Virus record (IMG/VR): IMGVR_UViG_3300009512_000012
Length of the DNA: 64,000 nt
Direction: 5' to 3' (one strand)
Origin: an uncultured virus (IMG/VR IMGVR_UViG_3300009512_000012)
Lineage: Duplodnaviria > Heunggongvirae > Uroviricota > Caudoviricetes
This document shows, piece by piece, positions 1-17,789 of the stretch. Numbering within the stretch: position 1 is the stretch's first letter; each line of letters starts with the position of its first letter. A model generated the notes under the pieces. That model had not been told where the DNA came from. It searched no databases and saw only the letters and a list, made by a program, of their open reading frames with translations. Position numbers and translations under genes: made by a program.

Positions 1-111
1 TCTGTAACCTGTGGACGAACCTCCACCTCCAGCGAAAGTAGAGATTACTCTAAACTTTTCTAATGCTTCTCCAGCATAAACGTCTTTAAGTAAGTAGGGT
101 TTGTATTTCAT
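1..111 (-). CDS. DNA (cytosine-5)-methyltransferase, N-terminus only (runs off window edge)
   Basis: Manual translation from ATG at 111 gives MKYKPYLLKDVYAGEALEKFRVISTFAGGGGSSTGYR, containing C5-MTase motif I (FAGxGG). ATGA overlap with the upstream gene. Not in the ORF track. Confidence 0.8.
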   Translation of the reverse strand, partial: MKYKPYLLKDVYAGEALEKFRVISTFAGGGGSSTGYR

Positions 112-929
112 ATAAAACTTTCAAGTGTGCCTTTTGATTGAACTATATTAGACCAATCTCGACATACATCCATTATTCTTTTTCTATTGTATAGGTTTAT
201 CTCTCTATTGTCAAGGAGTTTTTCAAAAATAATTGGTATATCTGCAACTAATTGTAAATTCAAGTGTTTCTTGAGTTTTAACTCATCAAACTCAGGATAA
301 TGTTGTCTAATTAAGTGTTTTTCATAAGGTTTATTGATACCATCCCAATCAAACTGTATGAAATAATCAAACACTTCCTTATTTAAATAAGGGGCAATAA
401 AGATTTTATCGTACTTTTTACTCAATAGTTCTAATTGTCGCACCCCAGCTGGATTATCAATTTTAAAGTAATCAGTTCTAAATTTATCAAACTTTTCTTT
501 TGTGTGTTTGAAATGTATCATTGCCTTTTTACTTAAACCATAATGGCCATCAGCGGCAACACCAGATATAACAACTTTTTCCTTTATCTTTGGAAACATG
601 TATAAAAATGGCCAAGTACATTCAAAGTGAACTTTCTTTTTACAATTCATTTCATAAGCCATCATTTTAAAGTCTTCAACCAAATTATCTATTGGTACTG
701 CAACACTTGTAAATGGAATATTAAACTTTTCGCAAACCTCTTGTGCCTTTAGTGAATCATATGTAGGATTGCCTTCTATGTGAAAAGAGTAACCATGAAC
801 GGATAGACCTAGTTTGTACGATGTAAATAAACAAGTATTACTATCAACACCACCAGAGAGCAACACAGCGATATCATTATTTTCATTTCTTTCCTTTTGT
901 ATAATATTTTCTAATAATTTATTAATCAT
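108..929 (-). CDS. PP-loop (adenine nucleotide alpha-hydrolase) protein, asparagine-synthase C-terminal-like, no glutaminase domain
   Basis: LLSGGVDS PP-loop, VISGVAADGHYG (cf. SGEGADE of AsnB), APYL...F and EK.LIR motifs; 273 aa. Confidence 0.75.
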   Translation of the reverse strand: MINKLLENIIQKERNENNDIAVLLSGGVDSNTCLFTSYKLGLSVHGYSFHIEGNPTYDSLKAQEVCEKFNIPFTSVAVPIDNLVEDFKMMAYEMNCKKKVHFECTWPFLYMFPKIKEKVVISGVAADGHYGLSKKAMIHFKHTKEKFDKFRTDYFKIDNPAGVRQLELLSKKYDKIFIAPYLNKEVFDYFIQFDWDGINKPYEKHLIRQHYPEFDELKLKKHLNLQLVADIPIIFEKLLDNREINLYNRKRIMDVCRDWSNIVQSKGTLESFI

Positions 930-1147: not shown

Positions 1148-1259
1148 GAACTATACCTTCGATATTGCATATATCAATAGGATTAATTTGTACACTTCGT
1201 AAAGAAGAAAGTTTATCAATTGCACCTGATGATTGTTCTTTCCTAATACTATTTAGCAT
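1116..1259 (-). pseudogene. 47-aa ORF, possible truncated radical SAM gene remnant
   Basis: TAATG-coupled to the gp43 stop. MLNSIRKEQSSGAIDKLSSLRSVQINPIDICN... resembles the run-up to a CxxxCxxC motif but breaks after the first Cys-Asn. Confidence 0.35.
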
Positions 1260-3733
1260 TACGAAAAGAAGTCCTCTAAAGAACCTGATGTACCATAAGT
1301 TCTATCAACATTCCAATGAATCTTTTCAATAATAAAGTTTAATGGTTCAATAAATGATTTTTCAAACTGCAATTCATAATCAACTTTAAAGTCAAGTTGT
1401 TTAGGAAGTTTTGTAATAAACGAAATGGCTGATGATTGATATATATTTGGAAGTTTAAGGTATAAGAATTTAATTTTATCACCCTCGTTGATATAAGGAA
1501 AAATATTTCCTAAATTGTTTTTCTTAATTAAATGATTGTAAAGAATACCACCCTTAACATGTATGGGAGCACCTTTTTTAAATAACGTGTGTGTCTCTGA
1601 CCATTTACCTATACCATTTACACTTCTAGGATATGCAATCTCTTCAGGTGCAAGTGTAAGAAACTTTTTACGAAAGTCTTGTATAAATGTATTTAATTCT
1701 TTTTCATCACCAGACATCATAATCTTTAATGCCTCTTTAATCTTTGCACGACAAGGTGCTGGTGTTGATGACTTAACTGCTTCAATACCCATAATCTTTA
1801 GAGTTGGTTCTTTGTAACGTACTCCTTCAACATCCCATGCATTGAGGATATATCTTTTCTTTGCAGTCCAAATACCTTTATCAGCAATTACTTCTCGTTT
1901 CATTTGCATTTTATTTTCATATGCATGAAGATAATCAGCAAGTTCTTGATATGATTTATCAATGAAAGGTTCTATCTTTTCTTTTGCGATGGTATTTAAA
2001 AAGTCTACAGGATTTTTAGGTTTAACTTTTTCTATTAATGTATCAAATGTAATATAAACAGAATCAGTATCAGACGCAAGAACATAGTCAACCTTTTCTG
2101 TTTTAAGAATACTATTCATATATTCATTAATCTTTTTTTCAATCCAACGAATAGACAACTGACCAGAAGTAGTAATTGCTTCAGCCATTGTATTAGAATA
2201 ATATCTAAACCAATTGTTACCAATTGCACCATAGGCCGAGTTTAAAGAAATCTTTTTTGCCATTTGAATATTATTAAATGTAGAAATTTGTTTTTCATAC
2301 TTCTTGTCTTTTGTATTAACAAGATTTTGTTTTGCTTCAAGCATATACTTTTTATACTTAACTCTATCATCATACATTGTTTGCATCATCTCTGGTAAGA
2401 AACCTTTTTTATCAGTTCTAAACAAAGCACCATTTGGTGTCATCGTTGTATTTTTAAGAATAGAAGTATCAATCTTTTTGTCTAAGAGTTTATCAACTGT
2501 CATATTAGGAACAGTCTTTTCACTTTTCATAGTTTCAGGTGAAATGTTATATTGCATAATTAAGTGTGGATATAATGAATTTAAATCAAAAGATAATACC
2601 CATTTATGCATACCTGTTTGTGGGTCTTTTACATATGCACCCTCATACTTGTCTGACTTTTCACTATATGTTTTTTGTGGAATAACAATATTCCTATCCA
2701 TTAGATAATTGTGAATAAGAATATCCCAATACTTAACCGAACCTAAAACATCTGTGTAATTAACTTTTGCATCATAAGCCATGGTTAAACATAATTCAAT
2801 AAGTTTCATTTTGTCTTCTAGTTTATCAACAATTTCCACGTCCATAATATTATAATCAATAAACGATTGAAAATCTTTTTGATACCATTCACTAAATGTT
2901 TCATAAGGATTACCATCTTTATTTTCACCTAGTTCAACATTAGCGATGTGGTCAAGACGATATGATTCTTGATTTGTGTAAGTAAACTTTCTGTACAAGT
3001 CATAGTAATCAAGTGCGGCAATACCTTGAATATCAAACACCTGATGATTACGACCCATTTTGTAAATAGTTCTTGCTTGAACTGAACCCCATGGTGAAAG
3101 TCTTTTTAACTGTTGTTCATCAAAGAGTTTGTTAATACGATTACACAGATAAGGTATATCAAAAAATTCAGTATTCCAACCAGTAATAATATCAGGTTGA
3201 TTGTGTTGCCAGAATTTTAGAAATTCAAATATAAGTTCTTTTTCAGTTTCACATTTTACATATGCAACATCAGGTCTAGTACTTTTGTATTCACCAACAC
3301 CCCAAACAAAGATTTGTTTATTTGCATGATTCTTTATAGTAATAGAAAGCAATTCATCATTTGCGTCTTGTGGGTTAGGAAATCCATTATCACATTTAAC
3401 TTCGATATCAATAGTTGCTATAAGAATATCATCTAGTGACCATTCAAGATTTCGATAGTTTTCATATAAGAAAGAATATTGGTATTGTGTATTACCATAA
3501 ATGAGATGTGGTTGTTGTTTATACTGTTCAACCCATTCCTTTGAATCTTTAATAGATAAATGTTTTATAGGTGTGACATATTTACCATCAAGTGTTTTAA
3601 ACTTAGTTTCACGCATAACAGGTGAATATAGAGTAGGTGTGTATTTAACCTTTCTATTGATACGTTGGCCGTCTACAACCTCACGTAATAGTAGATTGTT
3701 TCCCCATTGGGAAACATTAGTATAAAATTTCAT
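1259..3733 (-). CDS. 43: family B DNA polymerase (T4 gp43)
   Basis: DIEV exonuclease motif, SFDLNSLYP, KISLNSAYG, SDTDS, KKRY; 824 aa, uninterrupted. Confidence 0.98.
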   Translation of the reverse strand: MKFYTNVSQWGNNLLLREVVDGQRINRKVKYTPTLYSPVMRETKFKTLDGKYVTPIKHLSIKDSKEWVEQYKQQPHLIYGNTQYQYSFLYENYRNLEWSLDDILIATIDIEVKCDNGFPNPQDANDELLSITIKNHANKQIFVWGVGEYKSTRPDVAYVKCETEKELIFEFLKFWQHNQPDIITGWNTEFFDIPYLCNRINKLFDEQQLKRLSPWGSVQARTIYKMGRNHQVFDIQGIAALDYYDLYRKFTYTNQESYRLDHIANVELGENKDGNPYETFSEWYQKDFQSFIDYNIMDVEIVDKLEDKMKLIELCLTMAYDAKVNYTDVLGSVKYWDILIHNYLMDRNIVIPQKTYSEKSDKYEGAYVKDPQTGMHKWVLSFDLNSLYPHLIMQYNISPETMKSEKTVPNMTVDKLLDKKIDTSILKNTTMTPNGALFRTDKKGFLPEMMQTMYDDRVKYKKYMLEAKQNLVNTKDKKYEKQISTFNNIQMAKKISLNSAYGAIGNNWFRYYSNTMAEAITTSGQLSIRWIEKKINEYMNSILKTEKVDYVLASDTDSVYITFDTLIEKVKPKNPVDFLNTIAKEKIEPFIDKSYQELADYLHAYENKMQMKREVIADKGIWTAKKRYILNAWDVEGVRYKEPTLKIMGIEAVKSSTPAPCRAKIKEALKIMMSGDEKELNTFIQDFRKKFLTLAPEEIAYPRSVNGIGKWSETHTLFKKGAPIHVKGGILYNHLIKKNNLGNIFPYINEGDKIKFLYLKLPNIYQSSAISFITKLPKQLDFKVDYELQFEKSFIEPLNFIIEKIHWNVDRTYGTSGSLEDFFS

Positions 3734-3768: not shown

Positions 3769-4970
3769 GAGAAATAATTAATAAGTTCTCCGTCTCTTTC
3801 TAAGTCAACTGAACAACAATGAGCACCACCAGACCATAAGACGTTCCAGCGATTAACCCAAGGTATCATGTCAATATTATATTTTTTTAGTTTATCTGCT
3901 AAGTTTTTATCATACCCAGAGGTTATAATTGTATTTTCATCTAAAGATAATACATTACAATCGAATCTAGTTTCTTGAGAAACACCAAGTAAATGTTCTA
4001 AAGGATATTTATTCTTTAATCCTCTTTCTTCGCATAGTTCTTTAATTGTCTTACCAGTAAAGTTTGCTGATTCATCAATCAAAATAATATCCCAATTGTT
4101 ATCTTTCATAATTTGAGGTACATACTTTTCATGCCAAGTAATAACCAAGCCAGGTCTTAAAATAGCAAACTTACCATCAACATGGCCATATGCATTTAAA
4201 GATAAAAACTCATGTTTAGGAAATTCTCTTTTCCACCACTCTAATCCATTTTCAGTTATACAAATTTTAGAATGTTCTTTAATGTCTAACAGTTCATCTG
4301 GTTTGGCATGTGTATGAAAAATATGTTTACCACACTTATAGAATGCAGCAGTATCGCCAACAAATTCTCTAGCCTTATTATAAATTTTAATTGTTTTATT
4401 TGCAGTTGTGTTTCTTGATTCAATATCATCAACAGAGTTATTCCAATCCTCTGCTATCTCTGTAATCACAGGTGGCATTGCAATAAATCTAGCACCATCA
4501 TTAAATTCATCTAACAAAACTTCTCGATGATTAAAATTTTCAATACGTCTATCGTGTGATGCTGTATTTATTTCAAAAATAGTATTACCTATCTTTCCAA
4601 CTGTATCACGACATTGCATTGGATGTTCTAATTGTCTTTCAACACCATACCTAAGATTTGGTCGAACAACTTCAGCACCAAAAGATTTACAAATATCTGC
4701 TAGTGCGTTAAGGTCTTCATTTGTTTCATCATGAACTTTTTTTAATACATCAATTGTAGGTGAATCGAATATATCGAATAAACTTTCAGCAGTACTTCTT
4801 ATGTGATTTGAAACATTATTATCTAGATATTTGTTATATCTATGATTTACTTCATGTTCATAATCAAGTAATATTTTTAATTTATTGTCGTCAAGTATGT
4901 GGTCAACTTTAAAAGATTTTCCTATTAAAACCTTTTTTAGTTTAGTCCACTCATCATAAACTGTTTTCAT
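3765..4970 (-). CDS. amidinotransferase (glycine/inosamine-phosphate amidinotransferase family)
   Basis: VYDEWTKLKKVLIG N-terminus, CRD, HVDG..ILRPGL, CNVLSLDE and GGAHCCSVDL catalytic Cys. Start at 4970 preferred (ORF open to 4985). Confidence 0.88.
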   Translation of the reverse strand: MKTVYDEWTKLKKVLIGKSFKVDHILDDNKLKILLDYEHEVNHRYNKYLDNNVSNHIRSTAESLFDIFDSPTIDVLKKVHDETNEDLNALADICKSFGAEVVRPNLRYGVERQLEHPMQCRDTVGKIGNTIFEINTASHDRRIENFNHREVLLDEFNDGARFIAMPPVITEIAEDWNNSVDDIESRNTTANKTIKIYNKAREFVGDTAAFYKCGKHIFHTHAKPDELLDIKEHSKICITENGLEWWKREFPKHEFLSLNAYGHVDGKFAILRPGLVITWHEKYVPQIMKDNNWDIILIDESANFTGKTIKELCEERGLKNKYPLEHLLGVSQETRFDCNVLSLDENTIITSGYDKNLADKLKKYNIDMIPWVNRWNVLWSGGAHCCSVDLERDGELINYFS

Positions 4971-5376
4971 CCCTAGTCTTCCCAATATTATATTTTGTTT
5001 CCAAATTCCACTCCGACTTTTCTTTAAAACTTATTATTTTGATTTGACTTAAAGGTGACATCTCTCCGATTTCACCAACAACATCTATTAGACCCCAATC
5101 TTTTAATAGACTAGCAATCCTATTTCTTCTTGATATGTCATTCTCTGTAAGGTTTGTTTCTTTGCCGTCTAAAGCAAATAGTTCTTTAAAGTGAACTATG
5201 TAATACTTACCTTGTTTATGAAGAATATGACACGATTGATATAACTTTTTTTCTTTTCTTGAAGCAACACCGATTCTAGATAATGTTTCTCTAACTTTTA
5301 GAAAATCATCTGGCTCTTTTAATGTTACCTCAAGCATTTGGTCTTTATTAAAACTAACGCTTTCCATTTTTTCCAC
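4954..5376 (-). CDS. regA: translational repressor RegA
   Basis: DDFLKVRETLSRIG, LYQSCHILHKQGKYYIVHFKELF; canonical position after gp62. Confidence 0.97.
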   Translation of the reverse strand: MEKMESVSFNKDQMLEVTLKEPDDFLKVRETLSRIGVASRKEKKLYQSCHILHKQGKYYIVHFKELFALDGKETNLTENDISRRNRIASLLKDWGLIDVVGEIGEMSPLSQIKIISFKEKSEWNLETKYNIGKTRDENSL

Positions 5377-5749
5377 CCCTGTTCAATTTTTGTTTTATGT
5401 AATCTATTTGTTCATTACTAAGCATGTCAAGAGCAGATTTTGCCTTTTCATTACTATAACCATAATACTCTTTTACATACTCCAAGTTTTTAGATTTGCT
5501 CGATTTCATCCATGGTGCAAATCTTTTTCGTGTTCGCAAACTATTTAGTAAAAAATTATATTGAAGTTTGTTGTTTAAGTGGTGTCTTATGTTCATTTCA
5601 TTGACAAGCATAATAGTATCGCCAAAGGGGGCAAGACATTTGTTGACAATATAAGCAGGGTATTTCTTTTCCCATGCTACGTCATCTGTATCCATTAGAT
5701 TATTTTTTTGATAATTAATAGAGTTTAGATATTCTTTCAATTCATACAT
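5354..5749 (-). CDS. 62: clamp loader small subunit (gp62)
   Basis: KRFAPW.K, VKEYYGYSNEKAK.AL; start MYELKEYL at 5749 preferred. Confidence 0.93.
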   Translation of the reverse strand: MYELKEYLNSINYQKNNLMDTDDVAWEKKYPAYIVNKCLAPFGDTIMLVNEMNIRHHLNNKLQYNFLLNSLRTRKRFAPWMKSSKSKNLEYVKEYYGYSNEKAKSALDMLSNEQIDYIKQKLNRGGKNGKR

Positions 5750-6785
5750 TCCGAATACTCCATTTGTAAGTTTCAATTAAATGACTTAGTGCATCCATAT
5801 ACTTTAAATCACCTTCTTGAGGTTCAATTTCTTTCATGTTTTTTAGGGCGTCATCAATTGTTGATTGATAACAGTTACCTAAGATGTGTCTGTCACTACC
5901 AGGTCTATCTAAAAATGCAGCTCCTGTATAACAGTATATATCACCTTTAGGGTCAATATAAACCTTTGTTTGTGGTGATTGTTTACTATCTAGATGTTTT
6001 AATTCACATCTAACTAGTTTAGTTTCTTTACCATTCATTAAGTCATACATTGAATAACCATAATGAACTTTTACACCTCGTTTATTTGCAAGGTCATAAA
6101 ACTTATTTAAAATATCAGTAAACCTTTTTCTATCCTCTATAGGATATTGTGCTGACCAATCTTCTCGTAAACTTAATTCTTCAACACCACCAATATCCTC
6201 AATGTAATCTAATATCAATGGTAGTTTATAATAGTTAGTAGGTAATAATACCCAATTTAATTTTACTTTTCTTTTCATACTTGTCAAGTTATCTTTAACT
6301 TGATTAAATCCTTTTGGATTTCTAGTTGTTATTGTATACTCTTCTTCATCTACACCATACAAAGATATTCTAATTGTATCAAGTTTTTCTACATAAGGAT
6401 TCTTTTTTAAATACTTTGGTGTCATCATAAATCCATTTGTAATCAATCTCGACTTCATACCAACATCAAGTAAATCTCTACAAATTAAATCAAAGTAAGG
6501 ACTTGTTAGTGGTTCTAATCCACCACCGATATTAATTGTTGCACGTCCTTTATTTTGATAAATGATATCTTTAAATACATGATAATATTTTTCATCGTTT
6601 TTAAAAGCTGCATCATAGTTACGACCACAAAAAGTACATTTGTACATGCAAGAAATACCTGGTAATAAAACTATAGTATGTGGGTATCGGTACTCACCAT
6701 TAACTGCTGAATCCATGTGTGAACCAAATGAATTAATAGTTTCTAATTGTTCAGTTGAAAAATTTTCTAACATACTCTCTACCAT
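5742..6785 (-). CDS. DesII-like radical SAM enzyme (NDP-4-amino-4,6-dideoxyhexose ammonia-lyase family)
   Basis: YP..I.L.PG.SCMYKCTFC, GGLEPLT.P, IRISLYG.D.EEY..TT, LREDWS and D..GD.Y.Y..A.F.D..G..R.I.G match the motif series I recall for Streptomyces DesII. Confidence 0.8.
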   Translation of the reverse strand: MVESMLENFSTEQLETINSFGSHMDSAVNGEYRYPHTIVLLPGISCMYKCTFCGRNYDAAFKNDEKYYHVFKDIIYQNKGRATINIGGGLEPLTSPYFDLICRDLLDVGMKSRLITNGFMMTPKYLKKNPYVEKLDTIRISLYGVDEEEYTITTRNPKGFNQVKDNLTSMKRKVKLNWVLLPTNYYKLPLILDYIEDIGGVEELSLREDWSAQYPIEDRKRFTDILNKFYDLANKRGVKVHYGYSMYDLMNGKETKLVRCELKHLDSKQSPQTKVYIDPKGDIYCYTGAAFLDRPGSDRHILGNCYQSTIDDALKNMKEIEPQEGDLKYMDALSHLIETYKWSIRNV

Positions 6786-7788
6786 TCATATTATATTGTT
6801 TTACTTTTAATTTTTTACTATATTCAATTGCATCATTTAATGTATCTATATTAATATCATCATACAATAAAGCTTTACCGCCACCTTCTATTTCATAGTG
6901 GTCTGCCCTATACTTTTGTTCATGACTTATTATCTCGCCATAATTATCCCAAACACTCCCATTATTAAATTGTTTAGGTATCATAACACAAGGTGTTTTT
7001 GTTAAATTAACATCCAACCAAGTACCAGCACCTATTTCACTTATTGATACCTCATGATATGCCAATAATTCTCTATACTCATTAATAGTTGGTTTATGAA
7101 TAACAGTTCCACAATCAACAAGTTTGGTCATCATTTCGTTTGAAGTTTTGTCACCAACAATATAAGTCCATTGACCACCAATCTTTTTTTGCAATTCAAG
7201 TGCTGTGTTGTAATACTTTTCTATATGTGGATACCAATCTCCACCAGAAACAATGATACCATTTCGGTCTTCTTCGTGTTTAAAAGATTGTGTTACATAA
7301 TTTGTACTAATAAAATCTACATCTATAATTGGATTGTGAATAATTGTTTTGGGGTTTATGAAATTGTTATCTGTGTGAAATAATACACCATTGTAATACT
7401 CATTTAAAACACTTGCATGAAATCTAGATTGTTCAGGTTCAACCCAAGGAATATCTCTGTCTAAAGAATAGATACCCTTGCTATGGCTCTTAGCATCGTC
7501 TAAAATATCAATAATACCACCATGTTCAAGTGTTTTATTAAAATGTGGATGCCATCCATATCGTCCAAAAGGAAAACCTTCGGTGACAATTATATCAGGG
7601 TTGTAGTCTTTATACATTTGTAGTAAGTCATTCTTTTCATAATTAAAAAAATCTATATCTAAACCTACACCAGTAAAACTTTTAGTGATAACTCTAGAAT
7701 CATCTATGTAATTGTTAAAGGCATTGACACGACTATGATGTCCTTTACCCACATTACTTTGTACTAGGAATAATGTCTTCATTTTCAA
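6751..7788 (-). CDS. GT-B glycosyltransferase (GT28 C-terminal-like)
   Basis: G.GH..R N-terminal motif, PDIIVTEGFPFGR, IIVSGG, SISEIG..T, PCVMIP, EQ.YRA. Confidence 0.8.
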   Translation of the reverse strand: MKMKTLFLVQSNVGKGHHSRVNAFNNYIDDSRVITKSFTGVGLDIDFFNYEKNDLLQMYKDYNPDIIVTEGFPFGRYGWHPHFNKTLEHGGIIDILDDAKSHSKGIYSLDRDIPWVEPEQSRFHASVLNEYYNGVLFHTDNNFINPKTIIHNPIIDVDFISTNYVTQSFKHEEDRNGIIVSGGDWYPHIEKYYNTALELQKKIGGQWTYIVGDKTSNEMMTKLVDCGTVIHKPTINEYRELLAYHEVSISEIGAGTWLDVNLTKTPCVMIPKQFNNGSVWDNYGEIISHEQKYRADHYEIEGGGKALLYDDINIDTLNDAIEYSKKLKVKQYNMNGREYVRKFFN

Positions 7789-8443
7789 ATACAGTTGTTA
7801 TTTCAGTAATTGGTGAATACCAATCCCATTTTCTTCTAGGGTCAGGTTCTTTGTCCTTTACTATTTCAAAGTTTTTTAAACCTAATTCTGCTTTATCATT
7901 TGTCATGTAATAATGATATCCCATATTAATTTTTTGTTTATAGTATGGTGTATCCGTTCTATCTCTACCATCATATGTTAATTTAATTAAGTGTTCATAA
8001 TCATCTTTATTATCAAGTAGAATAATTCCACCCCTATCAGTTGACAAATGTTTTTTTCTAAAAAAACTAATACACATTAATGTACCAGGTACATAACCAT
8101 CTCTTTTCCAATAGACGGCTGCATCAACTACTCTTTCGGTTAAATGATAATATCCTACCCACTCTTCATCAGTAAATTTAAACTCCCAATTGTTTTTCTT
8201 TAACATGAAAGGAACTGAAAGGTATGTGTACACAGGTACTTTTATTTCACCACTAACAATACTATTTGTCCTTAGTCTAGGTGATATATTAGAAAATGTT
8301 TTTGTTTCAAAAGATTGATTTGATATCCTAAGTGAAAGTTCTATAGCATTGGTACAACAATCAGTTGCCACTGCATATGGAGCTCCAAAGAAATCTGCAA
8401 TAGTTCTTTCAAACTTTTCTACTGAAACAAAATCTTCTTTCAT
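7754..8443 (-). CDS. DegT/DnrJ/EryC1/StrS-family PLP aminotransferase (short form)
   Basis: FE..IA.F.GAPYAVA..CT.A..L, VP.YTY.S, DAA (PLP Asp), SF..KK.L....GG (Schiff-base Lys), GYHYYM; 229 aa. Confidence 0.88.
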   Translation of the reverse strand: MKEDFVSVEKFERTIADFFGAPYAVATDCCTNAIELSLRISNQSFETKTFSNISPRLRTNSIVSGEIKVPVYTYLSVPFMLKKNNWEFKFTDEEWVGYYHLTERVVDAAVYWKRDGYVPGTLMCISFFRKKHLSTDRGGIILLDNKDDYEHLIKLTYDGRDRTDTPYYKQKINMGYHYYMTNDKAELGLKNFEIVKDKEPDPRRKWDWYSPITEITTVFENEDIIPSTK

Positions 8444-9375
8444 TTAAATTTTACTTGAGACATTAGTTCTGTCATACAAGCCAGTAGGTTAATTTCTTGG
8501 TCAGCCGCAAATGCTGATTTGTATTGATAATCAGCGAGTATAAGTGTTGCATGAGGAATAGTAGAATGGTCAATAGAAGTGTAAAGAGAATCATAGATTG
8601 TTCTAATAATTCTAGTAGCATCGTTATCAAGATTATTAACAATCCATTTACGAACATGAGTAAATTCTTTTGCCTTTAAGAAACCCATAAGTTCTTTGAC
8701 ATTCTCATTACTAATATTAACAAGAATACCTGCATCGATTTGACCAGATGTAGAATATCTCTGTAATTCATTTAATACTCTTCTCCAATCAGGAAAGTGA
8801 GCATTGATTAGTTCTGCAACTGCCTTAGGTTCTGATTTAATATTCTCTTGTTTTAAAATATTAAGAACTCTTTTAAAGAATTTTTCAGCAAGTTGTACTC
8901 TCTCACCATTACGAATTGTAAAGTCCACATTAGAACATCTTGATTGTAAAGGGTCAATTAATCTATTCTTGTAATTACAAGTAAGAATAAACCCACAGTT
9001 CTTATGAAACTCTTCCATAAACCCACGAAGGGCAGGTTGAGTAGATTGTGGATTTAAATAATCTGCCTCATCTAAGATGATATACTTACGGCCACCTTCT
9101 AGTGATACAGTTGATGCAAAGTTTTTAATCTTAGTTCTAAGAACATCTATACCAGATTCCTCTGAACCATTTATCATCATCCAAGTACTACCAATTTGTT
9201 CAACCATTGCTTTTGCAATTGTTGTCTTACCAGTTCCAGCAGAACCAGATAAAATTAAATTGGGTATATGTTTGTCATTAACAAACTCTTGAAAAGTAGT
9301 TTTAAGTTTACTAGGTAATATACATTCTTCTACCGTTGATGGTCGATACTTCTCGACCCATAAAAATGTTTCCAT
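8440..9375 (-). CDS. 44: clamp loader large subunit (gp44)
   Basis: LWVEKYRP, GSAGTGKTT, IILDEAD, LQSRC, FPDWRR. Confidence 0.97.
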   Translation of the reverse strand: METFLWVEKYRPSTVEECILPSKLKTTFQEFVNDKHIPNLILSGSAGTGKTTIAKAMVEQIGSTWMMINGSEESGIDVLRTKIKNFASTVSLEGGRKYIILDEADYLNPQSTQPALRGFMEEFHKNCGFILTCNYKNRLIDPLQSRCSNVDFTIRNGERVQLAEKFFKRVLNILKQENIKSEPKAVAELINAHFPDWRRVLNELQRYSTSGQIDAGILVNISNENVKELMGFLKAKEFTHVRKWIVNNLDNDATRIIRTIYDSLYTSIDHSTIPHATLILADYQYKSAFAADQEINLLACMTELMSQVKFK

Positions 9376-9378
9376 AGA

Positions 9379-10062
9379 TTAAACCCCATACGTTGATTCA
9401 GGTTCAAGTGCTATCCAATATTCTACATCGTTACTTTTAGATTTAAAGTGACTTATGTTTTTAGATGAAACAGATACATCATATGACCCTGGTAATAGTT
9501 GTAAGTTCTCTACTTTAAAATAAAACTGAAAAGTCTCTGCTTCCGAAGTACATTTAACTTCTAAAGAAAAACTATTTGCAGTATCATTCTTTTTATCTTT
9601 TACAGTAAGAAAACTACCTTCTTTGGTTTTTTCAAATACAAGGTCAGGTGCCATAACAGCAGATGCAGCCTTTTTTAATTGATTTAAATCTTCACTTGTA
9701 AGTTCAAATGTAACATCAACTGATGGCATTGTAATCATTTTACTAGGGGTTGTAATTACGGAAGGGTCGGAATAAAAATACTTTAGTTTAGTACCGTTAC
9801 TACCTTCTTCTTTGATTGTAAGATACTGTTCGCTAAAATCAATCACAGGGTCTTTAAATAAACTTGTCGATGACAAGAATTCATTTAAATCATAAATGGC
9901 AACTTGTTGTGGGAAAGTTTCTTTCACTGTTGCTTTGGCCACGATGTTTTTCATCGCTGACATTGTTGTTAATGTATTACCTTCTTTAATCATCAAGTTT
10001 TGATTAATTGCAGAAAAGTTTTTCAATACACTTAAAGTTTCACTATTCATTTTCATTTTCAT
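9379..10062 (-). CDS. 45: sliding clamp (gp45)
   Basis: LKNFSAINQ, IYDLNEFL, YWIALE. Confidence 0.96.
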   Translation of the reverse strand: MKMKMNSETLSVLKNFSAINQNLMIKEGNTLTTMSAMKNIVAKATVKETFPQQVAIYDLNEFLSSTSLFKDPVIDFSEQYLTIKEEGSNGTKLKYFYSDPSVITTPSKMITMPSVDVTFELTSEDLNQLKKAASAVMAPDLVFEKTKEGSFLTVKDKKNDTANSFSLEVKCTSEAETFQFYFKVENLQLLPGSYDVSVSSKNISHFKSKSNDVEYWIALEPESTYGV

Positions 10063-12051: not shown

Positions 12052-12089
12052 TATTTATATGGGGGTTAGCAATCAAATGTCAACCCCCA
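12052..12089 (-). promoter_or_regulatory. composite hsp20 promoter: stem-loop with TTGACA plus late box TATAAATA
   Basis: TGGGGGTTGACA...AACCCCCA followed by TATAAATA at 12059-12052. Confidence 0.65.
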
Positions 12090-12106: not shown

Positions 12107-12214
12107 TTAACCTTCATCTTGAACTATTTTAATAGCTTTTTCCCAAGCCTCTTCATAAGAATACCCTTCGGCTTCTAACTCTTCGGCTATTTCGTAATAT
12201 CTATTATAGTCCAT
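12107..12214 (-). CDS. 35-aa acidic hypothetical protein
   Basis: Manual translation MDYNRYYEIAEELEAEGYSYEEAWEKAIKIVQDEG; GAGG upstream; overlaps the stop of the CobS-like gene. Confidence 0.55.
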   Translation of the reverse strand: MDYNRYYEIAEELEAEGYSYEEAWEKAIKIVQDEG

Positions 12215-13385
12215 TTGATTCATCCTCTTCATCTTGAACAATTTCATCTGACTGTTCAGGTTCTGAAATATCAATACCTGCATCAATCTTAGAATAAAGA
12301 TTTAAGAAAGAATCTTTAGTGTCATCATCAAATCTGGCGACACATAACTCAACTGCTTTCTTTTTATCTGAAAAGATTGCATATGCCTTGACAATGTGGT
12401 CAAGTCTTCTGGTAGAGATGATTTCATCAATCCCACCTTCGAAAAAGGTCTTTCTAATAACCTCTGCCCAAGTACATAGATTTTCAGCAAACGCCTCATC
12501 TATCTTACCATACTTTTTCATAGAACCAAGAATAATCTTTTCTTCTACTTTTTTTGCGGCATATGGTTGTTCAATAGTAATGGCAAATCTTTCTAAGAAT
12601 GCTTCGTTTAAAACATTCGTTCCAATAAATCTACCATCCTCTGAACCCTTACCTTTAGTATTGGCAGTGGCCATAACGTTAAATCCTTGTTTTGGTGTAA
12701 CCCACTTATTTACTTTTTTCAAGTAAACGCCTTTTCCTTCAAGGACAGGTTGTAAACACATAAGTTTATTAGAACCTAAATCACACTCATCCAATAGAAG
12801 AGTACATCCTCTTTCCATTGCATCGATGACTGGGCCAGGTACAAACTTGGTCTCGCCGTTAACAAGTCTGAAACCACCGAGTAAATCGTCCTCATCAGTT
12901 TCGATTGTAATGTTAACTCTGATTAAGTCTTTTTTCATTTCGGCATGAATTTGCTCAATCATTAAAGTCTTACCGTTACCAGATAGACCAGTAACAAACA
13001 CTGGGTAAAACATATCAGACTTTGAAATCTGTTTAATTGTATTGTAGTGACCCCAAGGTACAAATCCCTCAAACTTCGAAGGTATCAAATTTTGAACATC
13101 AATTGATTTCGCCATTAAGTTTACACTTGTCGGTGAAGGTGCATCTACAGGTTGATTAATAATTGGTTGAACTGATTGTACAACCTCCTCGACTGATTTA
13201 TCACCAGACGTTGGTAATTGATACTTACCATGACCACATTTGAATTGTGGTTTCTTTAACCAAGAAGGGTTTTGAAAACCATTCTTTTCTGCGAAATCGT
13301 TGATTTCAAATCTAGTAACTACGGCAGCATCGCCGTACTCTTTAGACATCGCAATCACGAACTCTTGTTTTTTAGGTGTTAACAT
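12204..13385 (-). CDS. CobS/MoxR-like AAA+ ATPase
   Basis: GLSGNGKT Walker A, LLLDE, ATANTKG.G, LNEAFLERF, ISTRRL. Confidence 0.92.
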   Translation of the reverse strand: MLTPKKQEFVIAMSKEYGDAAVVTRFEINDFAEKNGFQNPSWLKKPQFKCGHGKYQLPTSGDKSVEEVVQSVQPIINQPVDAPSPTSVNLMAKSIDVQNLIPSKFEGFVPWGHYNTIKQISKSDMFYPVFVTGLSGNGKTLMIEQIHAEMKKDLIRVNITIETDEDDLLGGFRLVNGETKFVPGPVIDAMERGCTLLLDECDLGSNKLMCLQPVLEGKGVYLKKVNKWVTPKQGFNVMATANTKGKGSEDGRFIGTNVLNEAFLERFAITIEQPYAAKKVEEKIILGSMKKYGKIDEAFAENLCTWAEVIRKTFFEGGIDEIISTRRLDHIVKAYAIFSDKKKAVELCVARFDDDTKDSFLNLYSKIDAGIDISEPEQSDEIVQDEEDESNGL

Positions 13386-13419
13386 TATAAAGTCCTCTCT
13401 TTAATTATCATCTATTATT

Positions 13420-13449
13420 AGAATATCAGGTAAATCTTGTTATTGTCAA
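13420..13449 (-). promoter_or_regulatory. early (sigma70-like) promoter
   Basis: TTGACA-18bp-TATTCT with TG extension, followed by ATAGATGAT. Confidence 0.65.
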
Positions 13450-13457
13450 GGCCTAAA

Positions 13458-15707
13458 TTAGGCAATGTTTTCAATGAATTTGTTAAGTAATTGACGATTT
13501 AGTGTCTTTTTTGTGGCGTGTTTAAGGAATTCACGGGCCATTCCGGCAGATTTCATATTCTCTTTAAACTCATAATCAGATGATTCTTGAACATTTTCAC
13601 CTCTAGGCAAAATATAAAATTCATCATATCCAGCAACTTTGCAAACTGACACTTTATCTTTTGATAATTGTCTTTGAATTTTTGCAATTTGAGCATGGTC
13701 ACTATCACTGTATTGATTTAAATGATATGCATTACAAATAACATTTAAAGGAACTTTTCCCTTTTTACCTGAACCTGCAATGAAGAAACCTAAAACAGAA
13801 ATATTAGGTAATTGTTTTCTAAGTAATTGTAAATATGTTTTTGTTTGTTCAGAACCATACATTGCGCCACTAACTACTGTTGCACCAGTCTCTGGGCAAG
13901 TAATATGAACATCTTTACTACCAACTGAGTATGAACCATGTGGTTGTAAATAATCTTCACCAGAAGCACCAGAACTATCAGACCACCACTCACTATGAGT
14001 ATGACTTTCACCATCTGTCAAATAAACAAGATTTAATTTTTGAACTTTGTTTTCTGACATAAACTTTTTAGTAGTTTTGTAAGTAGTTATGATTGCTTGA
14101 TTAAGTGGTGTGCCACCAAGATTGAATCTACTAGGTATCCATGTACTATTAACATAACCATATTCGTCTTCTAAATCAGAATAACTCCATTGATAAGTCA
14201 TTGAAAGTAATTCTTTCATCATCCACATGGTTTCTTGTTTAGTCATTTTATTAGTAAAGAACTCAAATAAATTAAAACGACCAAAAGTTAAATCATTACG
14301 TACCTTGTCTTGTACTTCTTCGTGGTCATTATTTGTATTATATTTGTATCTATCTGAAAAGGCAAAAACTTGAAAAGGAATTTTTACTCTTTGGCAAAAC
14401 CAAATTAAGTTGTAAAGTTGAATAAGTGTAAATCTCATATTACCTGCCATTGAACCTGACCAATCAAGATACATAATCATACCGTGATTAGTAGAACCGG
14501 GTATCGTAGTAATCTTTGCGAATAAATCTTCATTGTATCGATAACTATGGAGTTTAGTCATATCAAGACTACCTGTCTTTGAAACAGTGGCTCTTTTGTA
14601 TGCATCAGCAGACTTTTTCATTTCAAACTCTTTAACCATATACTGAACAACTTTTTTGTTTTCATTAAAGATTTTATCCATTTCTTTTTGAACTGCGTTA
14701 TCAAAACTCTTACTATGATTGATAGTATAGTCTTCTTTGAGTTCTTGCATAATTCTTTTATATGATAAAGTAATTTTTGACATTTTAAGACTTTTAGGAA
14801 TATTTAAGTACATACGGTCTTTTGCTTTTTCATCAATATGTGCTTTCATGGCATCATCATAAGCACTATCGGTAACTGATTTTAAATCACCATTAGTAGG
14901 GGCACCACCTTTTGAAGCAGTAGTTGATTGTTGACTTTCTTGTTCTTCACCTTCGTCACCTTTATCTTGGTCACTTGTTTGAGTACCGTTAGAACTTTCT
15001 TCATCATCATCTTGAGATTTTGACTTGGATGAACTATCTTCACCTTCCTCGCCATCGTCTGAGCCATCGTCTGAGTTTTTTTGTTGTTGATTTTGTTGTT
15101 CACCATCATCGTCTTCTTTATCTACACCTGACATTGATTGTTGAGCATTATTATCTTGATTTTCTTTTTCTTGTTTTTCGTGAAACTCACAAAGTTTTGC
15201 CGCAAGACTAATTACATCTTCTGGTGTTTTACATTTTGAAACTTCTTCGATAAGTAATTTTTCTTCTGGTGAAACATCACCAAGAAGACCTGTCTTGTAA
15301 AAGATATTAATTTTATCAATGATATTAAGTTTTGAGATATCTTTATTATCTATACCAAAGAAATTTTTCTTTAATAACTCTTTATAACCTTTTTGAAAGT
15401 TTTTAACAGAACCGGGGTATTTCTTTTGAAACATTTTTTCGATACGTGCATCTTCGATTACGTTAACAACACCATGGTCAATACCTTGATGATGAATTGC
15501 ATCTAACATATCTAGAGGTGTATATAATGCATGACCAACTTCATGACAAACGAACATGTCATAAACATCGTTACTCATTTCTTCTTTGAAAATTGGTAAA
15601 ACTAATTCTCTTGATTTAACATCAAAAGAAGCAGTCTGTGCTTTTTTGTGAACAACGTAAACGTTTTCTTCAGCAAGTAGTTTCGCAATAGTAGATTTTT
15701 TAGTCAT
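13458..15707 (-). CDS. CobT-like protein: HExxH peptidase-like domain, acidic linker, vWA domain
   Basis: HEVGHAL, NVIEDARIE, DWSGSM (MIDAS), GGTPL, LTDGES. Confidence 0.88.
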   Translation of the reverse strand: MTKKSTIAKLLAEENVYVVHKKAQTASFDVKSRELVLPIFKEEMSNDVYDMFVCHEVGHALYTPLDMLDAIHHQGIDHGVVNVIEDARIEKMFQKKYPGSVKNFQKGYKELLKKNFFGIDNKDISKLNIIDKINIFYKTGLLGDVSPEEKLLIEEVSKCKTPEDVISLAAKLCEFHEKQEKENQDNNAQQSMSGVDKEDDDGEQQNQQQKNSDDGSDDGEEGEDSSSKSKSQDDDEESSNGTQTSDQDKGDEGEEQESQQSTTASKGGAPTNGDLKSVTDSAYDDAMKAHIDEKAKDRMYLNIPKSLKMSKITLSYKRIMQELKEDYTINHSKSFDNAVQKEMDKIFNENKKVVQYMVKEFEMKKSADAYKRATVSKTGSLDMTKLHSYRYNEDLFAKITTIPGSTNHGMIMYLDWSGSMAGNMRFTLIQLYNLIWFCQRVKIPFQVFAFSDRYKYNTNNDHEEVQDKVRNDLTFGRFNLFEFFTNKMTKQETMWMMKELLSMTYQWSYSDLEDEYGYVNSTWIPSRFNLGGTPLNQAIITTYKTTKKFMSENKVQKLNLVYLTDGESHTHSEWWSDSSGASGEDYLQPHGSYSVGSKDVHITCPETGATVVSGAMYGSEQTKTYLQLLRKQLPNISVLGFFIAGSGKKGKVPLNVICNAYHLNQYSDSDHAQIAKIQRQLSKDKVSVCKVAGYDEFYILPRGENVQESSDYEFKENMKSAGMAREFLKHATKKTLNRQLLNKFIENIA

Positions 15708-15774: not shown

Positions 15775-16920
15775 TTAAAGGTGGTCGTTACCGTAATTCT
15801 TCCATATGTCAAAAACCTCAATATTTTCGGGCGTTTCATCACTTGGCCAAGATTTGAACAATATGTCGCACCCTGTTTTTGCGTTGATTTTTACTATTTT
15901 TCCACCTAATTCTTTAATATAGTGTTGGATTAATAGGATATAACTGCCGTCTTCGTTCTTAACACCCTCTTTAAACCCTGTACTAGTAAATGCAACTTTA
16001 AGTGGTTGAACCTTACCTGACGGGTCTTGAAGCACTCTTCTTGCGACTGCTTCTGCTTGTTTTTCTCTGACAATCATTGTGTTGCCAAAATAATCATAAG
16101 TCATGTCTAATTTCTTAGTCAACCAACTTAATGCAATATTATCTCTAGGGTGACAACTTCCACCATCACCTAAACCTGGTTTCATGTATTTTGGACTTAT
16201 TAATCTATGAGTACACTTTGACAGTACATCGCAAACAAAATTTGCATCTGCATTTTTCATTTTATCTGCTGCATGTTGAATCATGTTTACAAAGTTAATT
16301 TTTTGAGTAATGAAAGTATTATAGAATACTTTAATCATTTCTGCTTCTTTAAAGTTACATATTTGAATTCTTGGATTGTTTTCTGCGATTGTCTTATAGA
16401 AATCGATTAATATCTTTGGTCTATAATTTGGTCTTTCGCCATTTGAACCATCTCCACCATTTCTGTCTGCACCAATTACAAACAACTCAGGATTTTTGAA
16501 ATCCCATGCAACGGTTCCTTGTGCTATGAAAAATGGACTATAAACAAAATCGGCATCTGTTATAAGGTCTCTAAGTTTATTATCAATTGTCGTAGGTATT
16601 ACAATTGAAATAAGAACAATCAATTGTGGTTTCTTTACGAACTTATTTAATTCAGATAGTGTTTCTTCAACTGCTGAATAATCGAAATCTTTTGCTGGTA
16701 AATCAGAGGTAGGAGTTTCTCCTCCATAACCATCTTCATGTGGTGTTGGTACTGAAACAAAGATAATTTCTCTATCACTTATTGCTTCAAACAAATTTTT
16801 ACGACAAATCGCAAGATTACTTACTTTTGGGTCGTACCCTGTTACATCGTGACCTTTTTCATACGCCACATCACTGCATGGCTTTACTAGTTTTCCTAAA
16901 CCAACAAATCCTACTTTCAT
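15775..16920 (-). CDS. UDP-glucose/GDP-mannose dehydrogenase family protein
   Basis: N-terminal Rossmann motif GLGKL, VPTP, AE.IK..YN, GGSCHPRD catalytic Cys. Confidence 0.9.
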   Translation of the reverse strand: MKVGFVGLGKLVKPCSDVAYEKGHDVTGYDPKVSNLAICRKNLFEAISDREIIFVSVPTPHEDGYGGETPTSDLPAKDFDYSAVEETLSELNKFVKKPQLIVLISIVIPTTIDNKLRDLITDADFVYSPFFIAQGTVAWDFKNPELFVIGADRNGGDGSNGERPNYRPKILIDFYKTIAENNPRIQICNFKEAEMIKVFYNTFITQKINFVNMIQHAADKMKNADANFVCDVLSKCTHRLISPKYMKPGLGDGGSCHPRDNIALSWLTKKLDMTYDYFGNTMIVREKQAEAVARRVLQDPSGKVQPLKVAFTSTGFKEGVKNEDGSYILLIQHYIKELGGKIVKINAKTGCDILFKSWPSDETPENIEVFDIWKNYGNDHL

Positions 16921-16985
16921 TTTAATACTCCTATTTCTTTAAATTAATTCTATATATTATATATACGTGCTTATTTAGTCTTTCT

Positions 16986-17789
16986 TTATAGTGCAATATC
17001 AAGTTCTTTATAGATAAATTTCATAATATTTCTTTGAGATTCAGCATTTGGATGTGCATCTATTCCACTAATTCTTTCATATTGACCTGCTCGTTCTAAA
17101 AAGTTTATCAGATGAAATCCACCTAATTCATTAAAACACGGCCATCCCATAAATGTATCTTCTTTTATCTGTAAAGATAATGGGTTCTTTATTAATTGTT
17201 CCATAGATTCTTTTTTAAACAACTTTGCTTCTTTATCATGTTCAAAGTAATTTGACATAGGATTTAACATTTGAAACATTTGTAATTTTATATTTCTAGA
17301 TTCGCAAATACATTGTAATGAATAAAACAATTGTAAATTCTTATTAATAATTTGTTTAGGTGTTGGATACTCACTAGAAAAAGTATTTAGATACCATTGA
17401 TTTAAATATTCGTAATCAAAAACTTCTCTATCAAGTTTTTTATCTATCACATCTTTTCGTCTTGGTACAAGTGTTCTCCATTCAGGACCTCTTCCTTCGG
17501 ACGGAAAGGGTCCAATACAGCAATCATCTTTATGTTTAATCATAAAATCTTGTCTTGTCCACTCTGTCCAACCAACTATTACATAATCAATTTTATCGTG
17601 TTTAGATATTTCAGAAACAACTCTATTAAAGATTATTTCGTTTCCAATACCACATATTGCAAGATTGATAACATTAGTATTTGTTTTTTCAGAAAGTAAC
17701 TCTGGCCACATTTTAAATTCAAGAGGCATTGGTTGTGCTGACTTTGGTTGTTCTTTATCTGTAAAACTGCAACCACCTACAATAATCAT
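16986..17789 (-). CDS. SGNH/GDSL-like hydrolase or acyltransferase
   Basis: GCSFT, W..LL, NLA..G.GN, VGWT...R, DAHPN (Ser...Asp-x-His). Confidence 0.75.
   Translation of the reverse strand: MIIVGGCSFTDKEQPKSAQPMPLEFKMWPELLSEKTNTNVINLAICGIGNEIIFNRVVSEISKHDKIDYVIVGWTEWTRQDFMIKHKDDCCIGPFPSEGRGPEWRTLVPRRKDVIDKKLDREVFDYEYLNQWYLNTFSSEYPTPKQIINKNLQLFYSLQCICESRNIKLQMFQMLNPMSNYFEHDKEAKLFKKESMEQLIKNPLSLQIKEDTFMGWPCFNELGGFHLINFLERAGQYERISGIDAHPNAESQRNIMKFIYKELDIAL

Follow-up and report, generated by a model that had tools for sequence, protein, structure and literature searches.

We analysed a stretch of 64,000 nucleotides of the uncultured virus IMGVR_UViG_3300009512_000012 (hereafter the window), and in particular three genes that lie on its minus strand between gp44 and gp62, which encode the large and the small subunit of the clamp loader. 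Read in the direction of transcription, the minus-strand series consists of gp45, gp44, a short pyridoxal phosphate (PLP) dependent aminotransferase gene (AT), a glycosyltransferase gene (GT), a gene for a radical S-adenosylmethionine (SAM) protein (rSAM), gp62, regA, an open reading frame (ORF) of 406 aa and gp43 (Table 1). An earlier note, made from the letters alone, had placed a deoxysugar cassette here; the three ORFs were found exactly where it had put them, and the identity of the flanking genes follows from their assignment to PHROG 168 and PHROG 225. All four junctions overlap, as had also been claimed. The junction of gp44 and AT is the tetranucleotide ATGA at 8443-8440 (minus-strand reading), AT and GT overlap by 29 nt if GT starts at ATG 7782, the start used by its homologues, or by 35 nt from TTG 7788, and GT and rSAM overlap by 35 nt with ATG 6785 or by 23 nt with ATG 6773. 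The overlap between rSAM and gp62 is ATGTATGA, which comprises 8 nt, with the ATG of gp62 at 5749. The G+C content is flat over the region (27-34%).

Consensus scans of the minus strand from 5300 to 9400, which allow inference at the level of a consensus, revealed neither terminator-like sites nor T4-type late-promoter motifs (TATAAATA). Judged by their overlaps, AT, GT and rSAM are translationally coupled to the clamp-loader genes, and since they also lack a late promoter or terminator of their own in these scans, they are probably made together with the replisome in early or mid infection, in agreement with the co-expression proposed earlier. The only metatranscriptome run with any matching words, X20, reaches conserved stretches of regA, gp62 and gp44 without touching the cassette and is therefore neutral on expression.

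Over the flanking replication genes the nearest database phages are Methylophilales phage Melnitz, with 70% nucleotide identity, and the Pelagibacter phages Mosig and HTVC008M; T4-like cyanophages come next. By this comparison the window derives from an uncultured marine T4-like phage, with Melnitz and the Pelagibacter myophages as its closest relatives in culture. The statement that gp44 and gp62 are normally adjacent is true for T4, but the marine T4-like relatives usually carry cargo between them: a 2-oxoglutarate-Fe(II) oxygenase is annotated there in HTVC008M and Mosig, a DNA methylase in the cyanophages S-MbCM6 and P-TIM68, and hypothetical genes elsewhere. Because the gap is usually filled, we regard the slot as a recurrent variable site and not as a unique insertion.

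Table 1. Genes from gp45 to gp43 in the window, listed in transcription order.
Feature	Position	Strand	Remarks
gp45	9379-10062	(-)	directly 5' of gp44 in transcription order
gp44, clamp-loader large subunit	8440-9375	(-)	PHROG 168 E 3.2e-121; Pfam Gp44_lid + AAA
AT, short DegT/DnrJ/EryC1-type PLP aminotransferase, 229 aa	7754-8443	(-)	PF01041 E 1.7e-15
GT, GT-B glycosyltransferase, 345-aa ORF	6751-7788	(-)	ORF from TTG 7788; likely start ATG 7782
rSAM, DesII-family radical SAM protein ('mini-DesII'), 347 aa	5742-6785	(-)	TIGR04426 E 1.7e-49
gp62, clamp-loader small subunit	5354-5776	(-)	PHROG 225 E 5.5e-43; Pfam Phage_clamp_A; likely start ATG 5749 (ORF from TTG 5776)
regA	4954-5376	(-)	3' of gp62 in transcription order
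StrB1-like amidinotransferase homologue, 406 aa	3765-4985	(-)	between regA and gp43
gp43, DNA polymerase	1259-3733	(-)	3' of the amidinotransferase homologue in transcription order

Within NCBIfam the rSAM protein matches the DesII model TIGR04426 with 168.9 bits over profile positions 101-442 of 468, while the second-best family, viperin, reaches only 39 bits; Pfam assigns nothing beyond the generic Radical_SAM domain. Among PDB entries DesII (8HZV/8HZY) is found with E 1.6e-36, residues 25-337 being aligned to DesII 120-462 at about 30% identity, and the next match is BlsE with E 1e-3. The DesII-likeness proposed earlier is thus upheld in that DesII is the sole specific family, but the score remains far below the equivalog cut-off of 450 bits. 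By these scores rSAM is a member of the DesII family and not a DesII equivalog.

The radical SAM motifs that had been quoted (PGISCMYKCTFC, GGLEPLTSP, IRISLYGVDEEEYTITT and REDWS) are all present in the translation. The cluster cysteines C141/C145/C148 of DesII (CX3CX2C) correspond to C46/C50/C53 of rSAM, the GGE motif (G187-E190) to G88-G89-L90-E91 (GGLEP 88-92) and the ribose motif R238/S240/Y242 to R139/S141/Y143, and of the beta-6 residues D323/Y324 the first is kept as D209 and the second is changed to W210. D456 of DesII is kept like the SAM motifs (D331 in rSAM, invariant in 13 of 13 aligned sequences), but E408 is replaced by Gly288. The Gly is shared with the viral loci L002, L122, L130 and L131, while L006, L008, L133, L134 and L104 as well as 57 of 60 pattern-matched homologues have Glu at this site. 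According to the study of the DesII structure (PMC11434129), the D456A variant is inactive, and E408 is the proposed general base, although E408A and E408Q are still active; Gly288 is therefore not disqualifying.

The six-helix N-terminal domain of DesII (residues 1 to about 131) is absent as well. The alignment begins at DesII position 120, only 45 residues precede the cluster motif, and the ORF overlaps the upstream GT gene. In a quick IQ-TREE analysis of 57 trimmed sequences the 12 phage rSAM proteins, all of them 324-366 aa long, form a single clade supported by an SH-aLRT value of 100, and its stem is long (1.26 substitutions per site). On these grounds we assign rSAM to the small DesII family of radical SAM proteins, as a member that is specific to phages and truncated at the N-terminus.

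How small this family is can be seen from a HMMER search of 1.84 billion cluster representatives, which returned 309 at E <= 1e-3, 63 at E <= 1e-10 and 35 at E <= 1e-30. Its full-length members fall into three size classes. The phage forms have about 350 aa; proteins of 412-539 aa carry a DesII-like N-terminal extension and show the Radical_SAM domain only (12 of 12 tested); and proteins of 753-905 aa consist of an N-terminal GFO_IDH_MocA oxidoreductase domain fused to the DesII-like part (18 of 18 tested). These bacterial fusions score 368-432 bits on TIGR04426, and three bacterial genomes have a gene for a Bac_transf sugar-phosphate transferase behind them. In a Pelagibacteraceae single-cell genome a DesII-like member of 505 aa lies by a separate Gfo/Idh/MocA gene, an NDP-sugar dehydrogenase gene and other glycan genes. 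No DegT gene is adjacent to the bacterial DesII-like genes; the Pelagibacteraceae genome has one about 16 kb off, provided that contig C5 is that of L022. The position of the fusions beside a Bac_transf phosphoglycosyl transferase suggests a two-step radical deoxygenation in surface-glycan synthesis. About half of the diversity of the DesII family consists of such uncharacterised bacterial fusions (753-905 aa; P0217-P0250; L017, L019, L021).

The AT protein matches PF01041 with 57.6 bits (gathering threshold 19.8) over profile positions 39-71 and 163-251 of 360. Positions 252-360 are uncovered, so that only the large PLP domain is present and the C-terminal small domain is missing; the full two-domain DegT architecture has about 360-390 aa. 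All of 20 aligned homologues share K131 (SFxxxKHL) and D107 (DAA). In a profile of these homologues K131 aligns with the PLP lysine of perosamine synthase, and D107 is, by the family pattern, presumably the Asp that pairs with the pyridine nitrogen. The best PDB match of the profile is GDP-perosamine synthase (E 4e-12), and BtrR and 3-amino-5-hydroxybenzoate (AHBA) synthase as well as WbpE and NtdA are also among the PDB or structural matches of the family. The AlphaFold model (pLDDT 86) finds AtmS13, CalS13, perosamine synthase and PseC as top Foldseek hits and superposes on their large domain only, with a TM score of 0.65 normalised to the query and 0.41 to the target. We assign AT as a minimal DegT-type PLP aminotransferase.

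For GT the assignment is based on the fold. Glyco_tran_28_C is matched with 20.3 bits (E 6e-4) at a cut-off of 22, and no NCBIfam or PHROG match was obtained. The model (pLDDT 80) has a GT-B fold with two Rossmann-like domains that can be superposed on solved enzymes. The kitacinnamycin glycosyltransferase (6j31_B) is on top of the VIA-align matches (Z 20.2, rmsd 3.6 A, 288 aligned), and the list, flat down to Z 18, includes GT1 natural-product and plant UDP-glycosyltransferases, MurG, GtfA and OleD; with Foldseek GtfA is matched at E 8e-11. By its fold GT is a GT1/GT28-like GT-B glycosyltransferase, which agrees, together with the PF01041 match of AT, with the identities that had been given to both proteins. 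An N-terminal motif of GT had raised the idea of a PseG-type hydrolase; no PseG is among the structural matches listed, which neither supports nor excludes this function. The homologues of GT make up only 19 clusters; one of them, P0198, with 88% identity, lies on a contig of 140 kb.

When the viral loci were recovered with a GT profile, all 30 had the cassette in the gp44-gp62 slot. The three genes occur together in 19 of the 30 contigs (18 in the order AT-GT-rSAM, one as AT-rSAM-GT), which bears out the synteny expected for them. A Gfo/Idh/MocA gene of 258-274 aa lies between AT and GT and replaces rSAM in four contigs, four others contain AT and GT only, and in the remaining three the type is unreadable at the contig end. 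rSAM and Gfo were not found together in any of 54 loci checked. The set of three genes does recur, but rSAM is an optional module, which is swapped for Gfo or absent in close relatives. The best NCBIfam match of the phage Gfo proteins is UDP-GlcNAc 3-dehydrogenase (E 1e-16 to 1e-17, far below the cut-off), the second-best is inositol 2-dehydrogenase, and the best PDB matches are glycoside 3-oxidoreductases of the DgpA type. Their similarity to the Gfo domains of the bacterial fusions is at family level only (21-31% identity, E 1e-8 to 1e-11).

The exchange can be followed in pairs of loci. L108 with Gfo and L006 with rSAM share 98% identity in gp44, 89% in AT and 62% in GT, which indicates that the same AT lineage serves either accessory enzyme. 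The corresponding values for L127 (AT-GT) and L131 (AT-GT-rSAM) are 98%, 84% and 83%. Module swaps between such near-identical phages appear from these values to be recent.

Nei-Gojobori dN/dS ratios from five pairs amount to 0.10-0.21 for AT, 0.11-0.28 for GT and 0.08-0.09 for rSAM, compared to 0.03-0.06 for gp44. AT, GT and rSAM are thus under purifying selection. In other viral contigs the cassette genes keep the same order at 54-94% protein identity, and contigs from two runs of other marine DNA studies are identical to the window across the junctions; the conserved order, the low ratios and the identical contigs show that the genes are real and not chance ORFs. Near-identical DNA is present in marine metagenomes of many studies, 13 runs holding at least half of the sampled words. 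Single contigs that join gp62 to gp44 without the cassette have sides of 26-36 letters and are too weak to be used. Taken together, the three genes are a conserved, selected and translationally coupled cargo operon in the gp44-gp62 slot. A function-free passenger status, which the shortness of AT and rSAM compared to the cellular families and the dispensability of rSAM in some relatives might suggest, has a negligible chance and is effectively refuted by selection and conservation (five pairwise dN/dS values of 0.08-0.28, intact catalytic motifs, intact reading frames in all full-length copies, and short forms that constitute large conserved families with at least 588 viral AT loci and a 12-row phage clade of rSAM).

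Outside the slot, mini-DesII directly precedes a short AT in L104 and L144, again with overlapping ORFs, and the pair lies between a DUF7201 gene and a primase gene; no GT of the cassette family is nearby. In L097, L098 and L100, in L099 and in L101-L103 mini-DesII has no AT within 8 kb. The 339-aa neighbour in L104 and the 314-aa neighbour in L097 were considered as GT and rejected, as they show no similarity to it; the former and its L144 counterpart are primase-like. Likewise the 206-aa neighbour in L101 has no similarity to AT and was rejected as such. When 77 short ATs were placed in a FastTree, those of the slot fell together with those of L104 and L144 into a clade of 13 (support 99), of which nine have mini-DesII as neighbour, three have Gfo and one has neither. 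From these neighbours it follows that AT and rSAM are a coupled pair across genome contexts.

The family of short ATs is much wider. At E <= 1e-3 we found 2,036 homologous proteins, the best 120 of which have 134-235 aa, and short ATs are encoded in at least 588 IMG/VR viral loci. For a survey of the neighbourhoods 570 ORFs from 71 further viral loci (L144-L214) were clustered. GDP-mannose 4,6-dehydratase is present in 34 of the 71 loci and abuts AT in 22 of 65; this set comes with hexapeptide acyltransferases and methyltransferases but never with a radical SAM gene, its ATs form their own clade of 26 (support 96), and it looks like a perosamine-type pathway. The second set is marked by an amidinotransferase-type protein of 324 aa, present in 24 of 71 loci; the radical SAM genes that go with it belong to other families, one of 283 aa (6 of 8 loci) and one of B12-binding type (4 of 4). 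Further neighbours of the half-size DegT family (about 195-235 aa) are proteins of 176, 280 and 384 aa, which are abundant and have no Pfam match.

The 324-aa protein is a relative of the 406-aa ORF that is encoded two genes downstream of the cassette in the window (BLASTP E 1e-12). As a single sequence the latter has no Pfam match. A joint profile of the ORF and its relatives, however, matches the inosamine-phosphate amidinotransferase StrB1 (PDB 1bwd) with E 1.3e-71 (positions 4-324 of 325); HsvA, AGAT and SxtG are matched too. C390 (GGxHC) is invariant in nine of nine sequences. Such relatives are found with the short AT in 21 of 65 loci, which indicates that the amine introduced by AT is probably kept and not removed. 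The 406-aa ORF recurs in the majority of related contigs, though not in all, whichever cassette type they carry. It is possible, to judge from this association, that the amidinotransferase homologue is a fourth component of the cassette.

A tblastn search of 50,697 phage records gave no match for rSAM or GT, seven for AT and three for the amidinotransferase homologue. Together with searches of the literature, in which no relevant paper on DesII together with phage was found, this supports the earlier view that a phage DesII has not been characterised.

We read the cassette, on the basis of these homologies, as a nucleotide-sugar tailoring-and-transfer module. For its chemistry we slightly favour, at a little under even odds, an order in which the oxidase (rSAM or Gfo) acts before AT and GT and amidination possibly follows. 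rSAM would abstract H-3 of a nucleotide-activated hexose, as in the first step of DesII, and would oxidise the C3 carbinol to give a 3-keto sugar, in which the C4 substituent may be kept or lost. In the sister phages the Gfo/Idh/MocA enzyme, which resembles sugar 3-dehydrogenases, would perform the equivalent oxidation with nicotinamide adenine dinucleotide (NAD). AT would then turn the ketone into an amine and GT would transfer the amino sugar to an acceptor, for which a host envelope glycan, a lipid-linked or a small molecule seems likelier than DNA; the StrB1-like amidinotransferase may turn the amine into a guanidino group. The fold relatives of GT act on small molecules and lipid-linked acceptors, and a survey of pelagimyophages describes clusters of two or three lipopolysaccharide (LPS) type genes and radical SAM cassettes and argues for modification of the host surface (PMC7029224).

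The oxidase-first order is favoured by several points. A 3-dehydrogenase-like enzyme replaces rSAM while the AT lineage stays, and pairs of a dehydrogenase and an aminotransferase are the standard route to 3-amino sugars. No 4,6-dehydratase could be found in the window, and use by the amidinotransferase presupposes that the amine is retained. In L104 and L144 the gene order is rSAM before AT, and the neighbours in the clade of 13 ATs are mini-DesII in nine cases and Gfo in three. DesII itself is reported to abstract H-3 of TDP-hexoses, to eliminate ammonia from the 4-amino substrate and to dehydrogenate 4-hydroxy substrates such as TDP-quinovose, the product being a 3-keto sugar in both cases (PMC11434129). 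The order given in the earlier note, amination before radical deamination and transfer, would in contrast leave a keto sugar and destroy the amine that a linked amidinotransferase would need, and the comparative evidence slightly disfavours it.

Other observations weigh against an oxidase-first order. The native reaction of DesII, the only characterised homologue, is the deamination of a 4-amino sugar, and the D456 needed for it is conserved. In every library AT is matched best by C4 aminotransferases whose substrates are 4-keto-6-deoxy sugars (perosamine synthase, PseC/LegC, AtmS13/CalS13), and the commonest neighbour in its sister clade is GDP-mannose 4,6-dehydratase (34 of 71 loci). The four AT-GT contigs without an oxidase mean that AT can get its keto substrate elsewhere, and Gfo and the DesII-like enzyme, fused in all 18 long bacterial representatives, cooperate there and are not alternatives. 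Substrate, product, acceptor and transcript are all predicted ones.

The same observations speak for the order known from DesI and DesII, which we consider less likely but still a strong rival. AT would aminate a host-supplied NDP-4-keto-6-deoxyhexose at C4, mini-DesII would remove the amine to give NDP-3-keto-4,6-dideoxyhexose, and GT would attach the product; the 3-ketone might first undergo a second amination by this AT or reduction by an enzyme encoded elsewhere, or be transferred unchanged. DesII is the sole specific relative of rSAM and all SAM-binding motifs are kept along with D456. AT is conserved and GT diverges when the accessory gene is swapped, as expected for an upstream AT, and the dual-function aminotransferase BtrR is among the structural matches. 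However, no NDP-hexose 4,6-dehydratase is encoded in the cassette or was found in the window, where the only short-chain dehydrogenase/reductase (43375-44226 (-), 283 aa, in the tail-fibre region) fits GalE or heptose epimerase better than 4,6-dehydratases, and five cassette-bearing viral records, each 17-35% complete, have no match to PF16363, the GDP-mannose dehydratase family. With one AT and no ketoreductase, no enzyme would be dedicated to the 3-keto product; the amine would be lost despite the association of amidinotransferases with this AT family; and E408 is Gly in the window, a change that the activity of E408A and E408Q makes less weighty. A replacement of the deaminase by a 3-dehydrogenase-like Gfo is also hard to square with this order.

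The term desosamine-type, under which the cassette had first been described, is too specific in any case. The desosamine pathway from DesI to DesVIII includes a 4,6-dehydratase, a second aminotransferase acting at C3 and an N,N-dimethyltransferase; the cassette has a single AT, no methyltransferase and no 4,6-dehydratase, and the partners DesIV, DesV, DesVI and DesVIII are all lacking. What the phage protein shares with DesII of Streptomyces venezuelae (TDP-4-amino-4,6-dideoxy-D-glucose ammonia-lyase) are the CX3CX2C, GGE, ribose and beta-6 motifs and the essential Asp; as is usual in clusters for deoxyaminosugars, its neighbours are a DegT-type aminotransferase and a GT-B glycosyltransferase. 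It differs by the loss of the six-helix N-terminal domain of 130 residues, the Gly at the site of E408 and its place in a separate phage-only clade. The bacterial Gfo-DesII-like fusions belong to the same radical SAM family and are linked to Gfo/Idh/MocA and surface-glycan genes (Bac_transf, WecG), but there both enzymes act together and the N-terminal domain is kept, whereas in the phage slot they are mutually exclusive alternatives.

WbpB/WbpE and NtdC/NtdA are pairs of a dehydrogenase and a DegT aminotransferase that make 3-amino sugars. The same pairing is seen in the AT-Gfo-GT sister cassettes, which also resemble in this respect the archaeal UDP-GlcNAc 3-dehydrogenase family NF040723; the window has a radical SAM protein in place of the NAD-dependent dehydrogenase, and its AT is only half-size. 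A similar arrangement in a cultured phage is ORF305-309 of Synechococcus phage S-SCSM2R, for which an AHBA_syn-family protein, a radical SAM protein, glycosyltransferases and an inosamine amidinotransferase are given (PMC12801897). This T4-like marine phage has an AT of the same short family (41% identity) by the same kinds of partners, but its radical SAM protein is SkfB/PqqE-like with 266 aa, the genome position is another one and so are the glycosyltransferases. The pelagimyophage survey is comparable in that sugar genes in small groups of two or three, as well as radical SAM cassettes, are scattered over the genomes of SAR11 myophages, with remodelling of the host surface proposed; it names no DesII-like enzyme, short aminotransferase or gp44-gp62 slot, and the words 'aminotransferase' and 'clamp loader' are absent from the passages searched (PMC7029224).

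A more far-reaching idea, which we regard as improbable, is a miniaturised and self-contained amino-sugar pathway of domain-stripped enzymes made together with the replisome. It would comprise mini-DesII, a mini-DegT enzyme perhaps acting twice, the StrB1-like amidinotransferase and the GT1-like transferase, with rSAM and Gfo interchangeable. The product might be a guanidino- or 3-amino-(4-)deoxy-hexose or an aminoglycoside-like glycoside that serves as specialised metabolite or as decoration of surface or DNA, a chemical type so far undescribed for any virus.

It is still a little less probable, and in our opinion unlikely, that the substrates are cyclitols or other small molecules, so that a dehydrogenase, an inosose-type AT, a StrB1-like amidinotransferase and a GT1-type GT would produce an aminoglycoside-like guanidino-aminocyclitol glycoside during infection. 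It is in favour of this idea that in butirosin and neomycin synthesis the radical SAM dehydrogenase BtrN and an NAD-dependent dehydrogenase do the same step. StrB1 as best match of the amidinotransferase profile, inositol 2-dehydrogenase as second-best family of the phage Gfo, the natural-product GT1 enzymes on top of the GT matches and BtrR and AHBA synthase among those of the AT family all fit this idea, but they are matches at the level of family or fold only. The AT, radical SAM and amidinotransferase genes of S-SCSM2R were called 'antibiotic synthesis genes' with an unclear role by their authors (PMC12801897). Against cyclitols, neither an inositol-phosphate synthase nor a 2-deoxy-scyllo-inosose synthase or kinase was seen in the window, the partners of other short ATs (GDP-mannose dehydratase, NDP-sugar dehydrogenases, acyltransferases) speak for nucleotide sugars, and the substrate of DesII is a nucleotide sugar, too.

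The position within the replisome genes would be explained if the sugar were put on a modified base during replication, like the glucosylation of hydroxymethylcytosine in T4, whose DNA glucosyltransferases are early genes with a GT-B-type fold. The cassette is embedded in and translationally coupled to the series gp45-gp44-gp62-regA-gp43, and the rSAM-AT pair of L104 and L144 lies again in a replication module by the primase gene. Nevertheless we consider such a DNA hypermodification quite unlikely. No hydroxymethylase of the thymidylate synthase type was detected in the window; the nearest record, G001, a fragment of 26 kb without rSAM or a thymidylate-synthase family match, is uninformative. 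Among the structural matches listed, GT resembles MurG and GT1 enzymes that act on small molecules; since relatives carry unrelated cargo in the slot, its position may only reflect an insertion hot spot; and the pelagimyophage survey argues that the glycosyltransferases of these phages act on host LPS (PMC7029224).

Cassettes for sugar modification were already known from phages, and the trio of AT, radical SAM protein and amidinotransferase from one cyanophage (PMC12801897). By the family assignments made here, a DesII-family enzyme in phage, in a minimal phage-specific form, is new, and so are its interchange with a Gfo/Idh/MocA gene in one slot and the connection with a very large family of half-size DegT proteins. 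The chemistry of DesII is known from a single enzyme of macrolide antibiotic biosynthesis, and its tiny family gains a phage-only branch. Mini-DesII, which does without the N-terminal domain, is a minimal scaffold for studying deamination versus dehydrogenation, and the swap of rSAM and Gfo in near-identical phages is a natural experiment. For the half-size ATs, abundant in marine viruses, we found no characterisation in the papers searched. If the products indeed decorate the surface of abundant ocean bacteria or of the phage, they would have a bearing on host range and phage competition in populations of the SAR11 or OM43 type.

The window contains some further genes worth mentioning, all of them on the minus strand. 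A second sugar island at 15775-20795 encodes an NDP-sugar dehydrogenase (TIGR03026, E 6e-36) with 41% identity to dehydrogenases that neighbour short ATs elsewhere, two ORFs without assignment (16986-17789 and 17786-18511), a NodU-like carbamoyltransferase (18480-19802) and a radical SAM protein (20118-20795) that is split from its SPASM domain (19789-20121), the two ORFs overlapping by 4 nt. A third radical SAM gene (39884-40789, 301 aa) is best matched by a model of the tungsten-cofactor maturase type (E 9e-12) and sits between the genes of the tail-sheath stabiliser gp15 and the small terminase subunit. At 12204-15707 a CobS-like AAA gene (393 aa) and a weakly CobT-like gene (749 aa) adjoin hsp20, upstream of which a late-promoter-like TATAAATA is found at 12052-12059. 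Finally, a 273-aa adenylating-type protein similar to Asn synthase and QueC is encoded at the start of the window (108-929).

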